Below are positions 40,178 to 40,311 of a stretch of DNA of 42,979 bases, piece by piece (the stretch's first letter is position 1; every line of letters begins with the position of its first letter). Under the pieces are notes generated by a model. That model had not been told where the DNA came from and did not search any database. It saw only the letters and a list, made by a program, of their open reading frames with translations. The translations under genes were made by a program, and so were the position numbers. The stretch comes from Escherichia coli (GTDB lineage Bacteria; Pseudomonadota; Gammaproteobacteria; Enterobacterales; Enterobacteriaceae). The stretch lies in the NCBI RefSeq assembly GCF_003334815.1, contig NZ_QOWO01000032.1. One strand, 5' to 3'.

Positions 40178-40311
40178 GCCTGATGCGACGCTTGACGCGT
40201 CTTATCAGGCCTACGTATTTCCTGCAATTTATTGAATTTGCACAAATTTGTAGGCTGGATAAGGCGTTCACGCCGCATCCGGCATCTGGGCTCGATTGCC
40301 TGACGCGTCTG
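40178..40311. repeat. REP/RIP cluster between convergent dtpD and phr
   Basis: gcctgatgcgacgcttgacgcgtcttatcaggcctac, then IHF-like core cctgcaatttattgaatttgcac, then tgtaggctggataaggcgttcacgccgcatccggca, plus a partial REP at 40298..40311. Confidence 0.8.

Follow-up and report, generated by a model that had tools for sequence, protein, structure and literature searches.

REP66, an IHF-linker REP/BIME element between convergent dtpD and phr of Escherichia coli

The dtpD/phr spacer and its repeats

The window, by which we mean the whole stretch of 42,979 nt analysed here, comes from a K-12-like E. coli and runs in reverse orientation relative to MG1655, with 99.8-99.96% identity to NC_000913.3 740900-771500. 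The open reading frame list places dtpD (493 aa) on the + strand at 38681..40162, ending in a TAA stop codon at 40160-40162. It converges on the photolyase gene phr (472 aa), which occupies 40312..41730 on the - strand with its stop codon at 40312-40314 (- strand). The flanking reading frames are annotated as dtpD and phr (or phrB) in all 5426 complete E. coli genomes searched, K-12 included. The element studied here sits in the spacer shared by the 3' UTRs of these convergent genes, with each UTR entering it from its own side. Two further open reading frames, at 40131-40337 (-) and 40084-40473 (+), span the element and are made of REP sequence and antisense coding sequence.

Beyond the dtpD stop codon and 15 nt of spacer (40163-40177), a long-stem REP of the Z2 type lies on the + strand at 40178-40214 (GCCTGATGCGACGCTTGACGCGTCTTATCAGGCCTAC), built as GCCTGATGCGACGC-TTGAC-GCGTCTTATCAGGC with a CTAC foot. 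It is followed by an L linker of 35 nt (40215-40249; GTATTTCC-TGCAATTTATTGAATTTGC-ACAAATTT), which contains a 19-nt core, TGCAATTTATTGAATTTGC, at 40223-40241. An inverted REP of the Y type then occupies 40250-40286 on the - strand (GTAGGCTGGATAAGGCGTTCACGCCGCATCCGGCATC), whose GTAG foot takes up positions 40250-40253 of the + strand. The remaining tail (40287-40311, +) consists of a spacer, CTGGGCTCGATT, and a truncated Z2-like REP half, GCCTGACGCGTCT, and abuts the phr stop codon; the truncated half TTGCCTGACGCGTCT lies at 40296-40310, just before that codon. A repeat search recovered this architecture as inverted-repeat arms at 40178-40191/40197-40210, 40198-40220/40244-40266 and 40169-40190/40271-40292, and as direct repeats formed by the tail with the left REP.

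The repeats have the properties expected of REPs, being imperfect palindromes with CTAC or GTAG at the stem foot that form hairpins with an internal mismatch bulge, and being both extragenic (between two stop codons) and highly repeated. Indeed, a 231-nt query finds a median of at least 33 places per E. coli genome. In the Rfam naRNA4 (Y-l-Z2) model, the Z2 half gives a near-perfect alignment with the left REP, which has copies of 89-97% identity at 18218-18434 and 22793-22828 in the window. Similarly, the right REP matches the Y half of the same model and is 97% identical to a Y copy at 22752-22786. Further REP copies in the window lie at 18218-18434 and 22711-22828.

Alignment of the window to NC_000913.3 equates positions 40177-40282 with MG1655 740955..741060, an interval entered as 'REP66', Convergent, dtpD/phr, in supplementary Table 15 of Harris et al. 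2026 (bioRxiv 10.64898/2026.03.23.713779). We regard it as essentially certain that the element is the REP66 copy of the REP/BIME family, of the IHF-linker type (RIP/RIB/BIME-1). The preliminary description had named it a REP-IHF-REP (RIP) element between convergent dtpD and phr, and this class is borne out by its architecture, its core and its gene context, as well as by the catalogue entry. The family is known already, and so is the dtpD/phr copy itself. REP, BIME and RIP elements have been known since the 1980s-1990s, REP66 is annotated and the linker stands in Rfam as ES036, and the element therefore carries little weight as a discovery.

Relation to other REP elements and the linker family

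Elements of the RIP/RIB/BIME-1 kind in E. coli, REP-L-REP units with an IHF site, were reportedly described in 1993 by Boccard and Prentki and by Oppenheim and colleagues, and in the GenBank K-12 record they presumably bear the label 'RIP ... contains 2 REP sequences and 1 IHF site'. The dtpD/phr element resembles them in having two inverted REPs whose CTAC/GTAG feet face a linker of about 35 nt, and in having within that linker the core TGCAAT(A/T)TATTGAAT with an IHF-consensus-like site. It further resembles them in being a single unit with no tandem array, with one L linker only between two convergent stop codons. BIME-1 has likewise been defined as a pair of inverted REPs around a long, conserved L linker, frequently with an IHF site (PMC3333891; PMC2817692).

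The core is shared with a second member of the family in the same window. Searched as the pattern TGCAATWTATTGAATTTGC with up to three mismatches, the core TGCAAT(T/A)TATTGAATTTGC has exactly two matches in the 42,979 nt, at 10411-10429 and 40223-40241. Since only 0.04 matches are expected by chance and none of 100 shuffles gave two, the pair is real and far beyond chance. A central motif common to both elements and placed between inverted REPs had been noted from the first look at the sequence and is upheld, with the core found at these two sites only, although it starts at 40223 and not at 40224 as first read. The extent first given for the second element, 10374..10472, proved too narrow, and the outer motifs that it shares with other copies extend it to about 10355-10502 (+). 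This element lies downstream of mngB (stop codon 10535-10537, - strand) and consists of an outer motif, a degenerate short Z1-type REP (10375-10403), an L linker (10404-10437) around the core, and a mutated Y REP (10438-10473) with the outer motif ACAAAGCGCCCTTTGTCAACAATCTG beyond it. It thus has the canonical BIME-1 build, though both of its REPs are mutated, the Y REP having turned into a perfect hairpin of 11 bp whose T-rich tail is weak. Its outer motifs are common to the copies at cysM/yfeS, cgtA/dacB and glpD and to the Pseudocitrobacter copy.

For a family comparison, 13 copies were aligned on the core, including copies at the dtpD/phr locus of other species, with nine E. coli loci sampled. 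Across ten independent loci, core positions 1-15 are invariant save for A or T at position 7, and the 8-nt spacer beside the core is just 50-80% conserved. Linker-like places number at least 28 per genome in the median (range 8-45) among the 5426 E. coli genomes. Of seven further copies sampled in E. coli, six are flanked by convergent genes, and the sampled family members are strongly biased to gene 3' ends. A canonical build is found in seven copies, namely those at cysM/yfeS, cgtA/dacB, avtA/ysaA, glpD and sorE/pepE, the mngB/cydA copy of the window and the copy in Pseudocitrobacter. In this build an outer motif precedes a short REP, GCCTGATGCGCTACGCTTATCAGGCCTAC; some 8 variable nt then lead to the core TGCAATATATTGAATTTGC, and a further 8 nt or so separate the core from the Y REP GTAGGCCGGATAAGGCGTTCACGCCGCATCCGGCA, after which comes an outer motif, TAAACAAAGCGCACTTTGTCAACAATCTGA.

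The dtpD/phr element departs from this canonical Z1-L-Y order in that it lacks the conserved outer motifs and has a truncated third REP after its Y REP. Moreover, its left REP differs from the short GCCTGATGCGCTACGCTTATCAGGCCTAC of six canonical copies, a short type that, following a summary in the literature, we take to be 'Z1'. The two elements of the window therefore differ in build, with Z2-L-Y plus a truncated REP and no outer motifs at dtpD/phr, and Z1-L-Y with outer motifs and the short REP type on the mngB side. In composition, too, the dtpD/phr element stands apart from BIME-1, which combines Y with Z1 (PMC3333891), since its Z partner is the long-stem Z2 and not the short Z1. The copies at yaaX/yaaA and aslA/aslB also have a long-stem partner and likewise no outer motifs, so the build at dtpD/phr is a sub-type and not a one-off.

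The use of Y and Z2 REP types is shared with BIME-2, the Y-S-Z2 tandem arrays that are gyrase targets, such as REP325/naRNA4 and the sucB-sucC array at 18218-18434. The Y REP, spacer and truncated Z2 at 40250-40310 are likewise arranged as at a BIME-2 junction, and to judge from its sequence the tail does resemble a Y-spacer-Z2 junction of the BIME-2 type. Unlike BIME-2, however, the dtpD/phr element has no tandem amplification, and its internal linker is L rather than the short S. The naRNA4 model gives 39.7, 36.7 and 32.1 bits at dtpD/phr, all below the cut-off of 59.5 bits and with no tandem repetition, the match of 39.7 bits coming from the tail region (40253-40330). By strict BIME nomenclature this copy comes closer to a chimera ('atypical'), and by the REP-IHF-REP definition it counts as a RIP.

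Within the linker, an IHF-consensus-like site, ATTCAATAAATTG, lies at 40225-40237 on the - strand, where it matches WATCAANNNNTTR with one mismatch and is preceded, a few bases to its 5' side on that strand, by AAATTT. The mngB-side copy reads ATTCAATATATTG at this site. As a statistical test the consensus match is uninformative, as 47 one-mismatch matches to WATCAANNNNTTR occur in the window against 35 expected, which is near chance, and the match at dtpD/phr is thus not discriminating by itself. It is the invariance of the segment across copies, together with the literature on the family, that leads us to place a putative IHF site here. The main text of an IHF ChIP-seq paper contains no discussion of REPs (Prieto et al. 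2012, PMC3333857).

Alleles and history of the locus

The element is polymorphic within the species. A long allele that carries it is found in 1981 out of 5426 complete E. coli genomes (36.5%), K-12 and O157:H7 among the carriers, and is nearly always at least 99% identical where present. The remaining E. coli genomes, strain ZH063 for example, have a short allele, in which the spacer is 41 nt long and holds a single perfect hairpin of 14 bp (GCCTGATAAAACGC-loop-GCGTTTTATCAGGC) whose right arm contains the phr stop codon. With 63% of complete E. coli genomes lacking it, the element cannot be indispensable to the ending of the dtpD and phr transcripts.

The spacer measures 149 nt in K-12, so that the two alleles differ in length by 108 nt, and the 13-nt direct repeats GCTTGACGCGTCT and GCCTGACGCGTCT stand just as far apart. 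A simple recent deletion between these repeats was considered as the origin of the short allele and rejected. In the short allele the hairpin, GATAAAACGC...GCGTTTTATC, is still complete, is compensated differently and encloses the phr stop codon, and the adjoining 300 nt of phr differ by 10-20%. Indeed, the last ~300 nt of phr are 80-90% identical between alleles, compared with 96-99% further in.

Five further species or lineages of the genus Escherichia (E. albertii, E. whittamii, sp. E1V33, sp. MOD1-EC7003 and 'E69') share the Z2-linker-Y arrangement and the same tail, which indicates that the long architecture is old in the genus. The linker at the locus is intact in E1V33, differs by a single substitution in its core (G for A) in E. 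albertii, is truncated in MOD1-EC7003 and has decayed in E69. In E. whittamii it is swapped for a linker of a different type, also found at pepN/ssuB. In Pseudocitrobacter the dtpD/phr spacer contains a canonical BIME-1, which is in opposite orientations in two species. These patterns mark the dtpD/phr element as a recombining, dispensable repeat. The swapping and decay of linkers at a fixed locus in sister species illustrates how such repeats evolve, and the polymorphism offers a ready-made pair of alleles for testing the effect of an IHF-linker BIME on convergent transcripts.

Folding, termination and the linker RNA

Folded as RNA, the 166-nt region reaches -69.7 and -67.4 kcal/mol on the two strands, with z of about -6.1 on each relative to shuffles, and both strands are predicted to form a long hairpin in which the two inverted REPs pair. 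Taken singly, the hairpins reach -21.3 (Z2) and -18.7 (Y) kcal/mol in the dtpD sense, and -15.1 (Y) and -21.8 (Z2) kcal/mol in the phr sense. Downstream of mngB, a terminator-like hairpin, AAGCCACGTATATGTGGCTT followed by TATTTTT (10319..10348, -; -10.2 kcal/mol), is found in the mngB sense just beyond the element, with the terminator scan placing it at 10348-10329. The earlier proposal that in both places the element substitutes for, or accompanies, a terminator holds as a description. On the mngB side the element accompanies one, and at dtpD/phr, where the spacer has no intrinsic terminator, substitution is a fair account of position and a putative one of function.

Published data on Rho are informative for the dtpD transcript. 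In vitro genomic SELEX in the NusG-plus condition gave a Rho-binding (rut) peak at 740722-740962 on the minus strand of MG1655, which is the dtpD sense and antisense to the phr 3' end. The peak lies inside a bicyclomycin-sensitive region (740409-741016) with a 7-nt overlap with REP66 (Delaleau et al. 2022, as carried in Harris et al. 2026). These data point to Rho-dependent rather than REP-intrinsic termination of dtpD read-through. Concerning REPs in general, Harris et al. 2026 state that about 30% of convergent gene pairs have a REP and tend to higher expression, and that most REPs have no poly-U tract and act as partial Rho-dependent terminators. They also describe REP325 as having a dual role, that of a terminator which is in part Rho-dependent and that of an mRNA stabiliser. 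Like REP325, REP66 has 3' UTR hairpins with no U-tract that are tied to a Rho-binding site, and it has an entry in the Rho-binding table of that work. REP325 itself, as described there, is a 12-unit BIME-2 array in a tandem operon and experimentally tested, whereas REP66 is a single IHF-linker unit between convergent genes. The same source reports that terminal REPs are not generally tied to longer mRNA half-lives, and the stabiliser role is thus context-dependent and may be nil at dtpD/phr. The Rho data and the folding fit REPs as context-dependent, partly Rho-dependent attenuators and exonuclease barriers, and not as intrinsic terminators.

The reading that we favour, and consider highly probable as a whole, is that the element is REP66, an IHF-linker REP/BIME copy in the shared 3' UTR of dtpD and phr, with REP-hairpin, Rho/NusG and IHF roles that we infer from the family. 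Each individual functional step at this copy might as readily fail as hold. At the RNA level, each convergent transcript would have at its end stable REP hairpins, every one of about -15 to -22 kcal/mol, or alternatively the whole element would form one hairpin of about -68 to -70 kcal/mol. The REP hairpins would slow 3'-to-5' exonucleases and define the processed 3' ends of dtpD and phr. Having no U-tract, these hairpins are not intrinsic terminators, and it is most likely Rho, together with NusG, that would stop dtpD read-through at the element or shortly past it. At the DNA level, the linker would be a family-conserved IHF site at which IHF would bend the spacer between the convergent transcription units.

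A different reading makes the element a bidirectional intrinsic (Rho-independent) terminator common to dtpD and phr. Strong palindromes do follow directly after both stop codons, and Harris et al. 2026 place 78 REPs, as a class, within 306 previously mapped bidirectional terminators of convergent genes. In genera without REPs at the locus, moreover, the short dtpD/phr spacer contains a plain G+C hairpin, which scored as terminator-like in two out of four related genera, Kluyvera (dtpD sense) and Salmonella (phr sense); the same scan made no terminator-like call in the spacer of a Citrobacter or a Superficieibacter. In the window, however, an intrinsic-terminator scan of 39800-40700 on both strands gave no site, with no T-run behind any hairpin, and the stems give way to CTACGTATTTCC and CTACAAATTTGT. 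Together with the general lack of poly-U in REPs and the overlap of the element with the bicyclomycin-sensitive Rho-binding peak on the dtpD-sense strand, as reported in the sources cited above, this makes intrinsic termination very unlikely. An even slighter probability attaches to the view that the element is purely selfish and has no host function here, being a mobile repeat of the non-autonomous kind, a REP doublet that a REP-associated tyrosine transposase mobilises or recombines. BIMEs have been proposed as non-autonomous transposable elements (PMC2817692; PMC3333891), and such a view would agree with the presence/absence polymorphism within E. coli, with the truncated, replaced or decayed linkers of sister species in which REPs and tail stay, with the opposite orientations of the BIME-1 in two Pseudocitrobacter species and with the folding of the whole element as one long, REP-doublet-like hairpin. 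All of this is nonetheless compatible with our favoured reading and not exclusive of it. The strong bias of family members to gene 3' ends also speaks against a purely selfish repeat, and the invariance of the core beside variable linker bases fits a constraint on an IHF site or a recent spread alike.

The linker has also been reported as an RNA. The Rfam model RF02751 (ES036, CssrF; sRNA, 43 nt) matches 40207..40249 on the - strand, in the phr sense, covering the L linker and the first bases of the Z2 REP. The match scores 75.1 bits against a gathering cut-off of 37.6, spans model positions 1-43 of 43, is identical to the consensus and has the same coordinates as given by Rau et al. 2015 (PMC4676190). 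These authors called ES036 from RNA-seq as a 43-nt transcript of the MG1655 + strand (phr sense), for which they give neither an experimentally determined TSS nor a predicted terminator (their Table 3), and suggested that it derives from a longer processed transcript or from 3'-UTR processing. A full-length match and a called transcript would be expected if the linker encoded an independent sRNA gene in the phr sense with the REPs as mere neighbours, a reading that we nevertheless find improbable. No promoter-like site was found in 39800-40700 on either strand, including within the dtpD/phr linker where it could drive ES036, and no terminator-like site marks a separate transcription unit at the locus. 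The ends of ES036 coincide with two multi-copy REPs, as expected if the linker alone maps uniquely or survives trimming; its own fold is weak (-5.5 kcal/mol); and 63% of E. coli genomes do not have the locus. RF02751 also exceeds its cut-off at the RIP linkers of avtA/ysaA, glpD, cysM/yfeS and yaaX/yaaA and of Pseudocitrobacter, with 46.1, 43.6, 42.5, 40.9, 38.8 and 38.7 bits at unrelated RIP linkers. In contrast to an sRNA family, the RF02751 'family' thus corresponds to the L linker of a multi-copy DNA repeat. As the model in effect describes the RIP L linker, it should be read with caution. ES036 is most likely the linker part of the phr 3' UTR, as a hairpin-protected or the only uniquely mappable part, and not a separate gene, and in the mechanism favoured above it would most likely play exactly this part.

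One further idea is a long shot. The long/short polymorphism and the divergent last ~300 nt of phr might set lineage-specific 3'-end processing, read-through and antisense levels of dtpD and phr, and the linker RNAs at many RIP copies might form a functional multi-copy family of 3'-UTR fragments. On the mngB side of the window, the ES036 model scores 21.9 bits at the element and the linker contains a weak promoter match (9/12).

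The dtpD/phr spacer in other species

Two species of Pseudocitrobacter carry a canonical Z1-L-Y BIME-1 in the dtpD/phr spacer, and the two copies face in opposite orientations (loci L024, 3100-3245, and L028, 3100-3277). One outer flank motif moves along with the element. This arrangement points to either an inversion or independent insertions at this site. The corresponding locus of E. whittamii (L006, 3100-3240) has REPs and a tail as in E. coli, whereas its linker is different (CAAACACGTTGAAATTTCAGGTTTT). This linker is similar to those at pepN/ssuB in E. coli (L064) and at yjjX/trpR. 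The resemblance suggests that linkers are exchanged among BIME copies.

Genes flanking the dtpD/phr element

Between E. coli strains that carry the dtpD/phr element and those that lack it, identity at the phr 3' end (window 40312-40600) is only 80-90%, as against 96-99% a few hundred bases deeper into the gene. The 3'-end divergence between these two groups is at about the level seen between Escherichia species, and suggests either that the haplotypes separated long ago or that a recombination tract adjoining the repeat was imported. A 377-nt contig of a Nocardioides malaquae assembly (L057) encodes a stretch 100% identical to query residues 133-199, with which DtpD of E. coli ends at its C terminus. 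This contig most likely represents E. coli contamination of that assembly.

RNA and promoter matches within the repeats

The linker of the dtpD/phr element matches the Rfam 'sRNA' family ES036 (RF02751; window 40207-40249, minus strand). RIP copies at several unrelated loci (L065, L074, L076, L077, L028 and L009) have L linkers that also pass the gathering cut-off of this model. In effect, ES036 thus describes the linker of a DNA repeat and not one individual sRNA gene. The mngB-side element contains a weak promoter-like match, TCTACA-17-TATATT (9/12), at window 10414-10442 on the minus strand. This match is built from a REP foot and the L core and is directed toward cydA; the dtpD/phr copy has no counterpart of it.

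Other repeats and RNA features of the window

The sucB-sucC spacer holds a BIME-2 array of alternating Z2 and Y REPs (18218-18434), with two naRNA4 matches at threshold; the array is a published hotspot of gyrase cleavage (PMC6379681). MG1655 (NC_000913.3) has one more tandem unit of ~91 nt in this array, which is the only length difference seen between it and window 9646-40337. The window is therefore K-12-like, yet other than MG1655. A further BIME, consisting of a short REP, Y and Z2, lies in the sdhB-sucA spacer (22711-22828; naRNA4 match of 88 bits at 22755-22825), and other E. coli strains have additional tandem Z2-linker-Y units at this locus (L070 versus L071). Rfam matches on the minus strand, namely two RtT repeats interspersed among four tRNAs (5-592) and the CpoB/ybgF thermometer (1519-1657; 142 bits), are ordinary features already known in this K-12 region.
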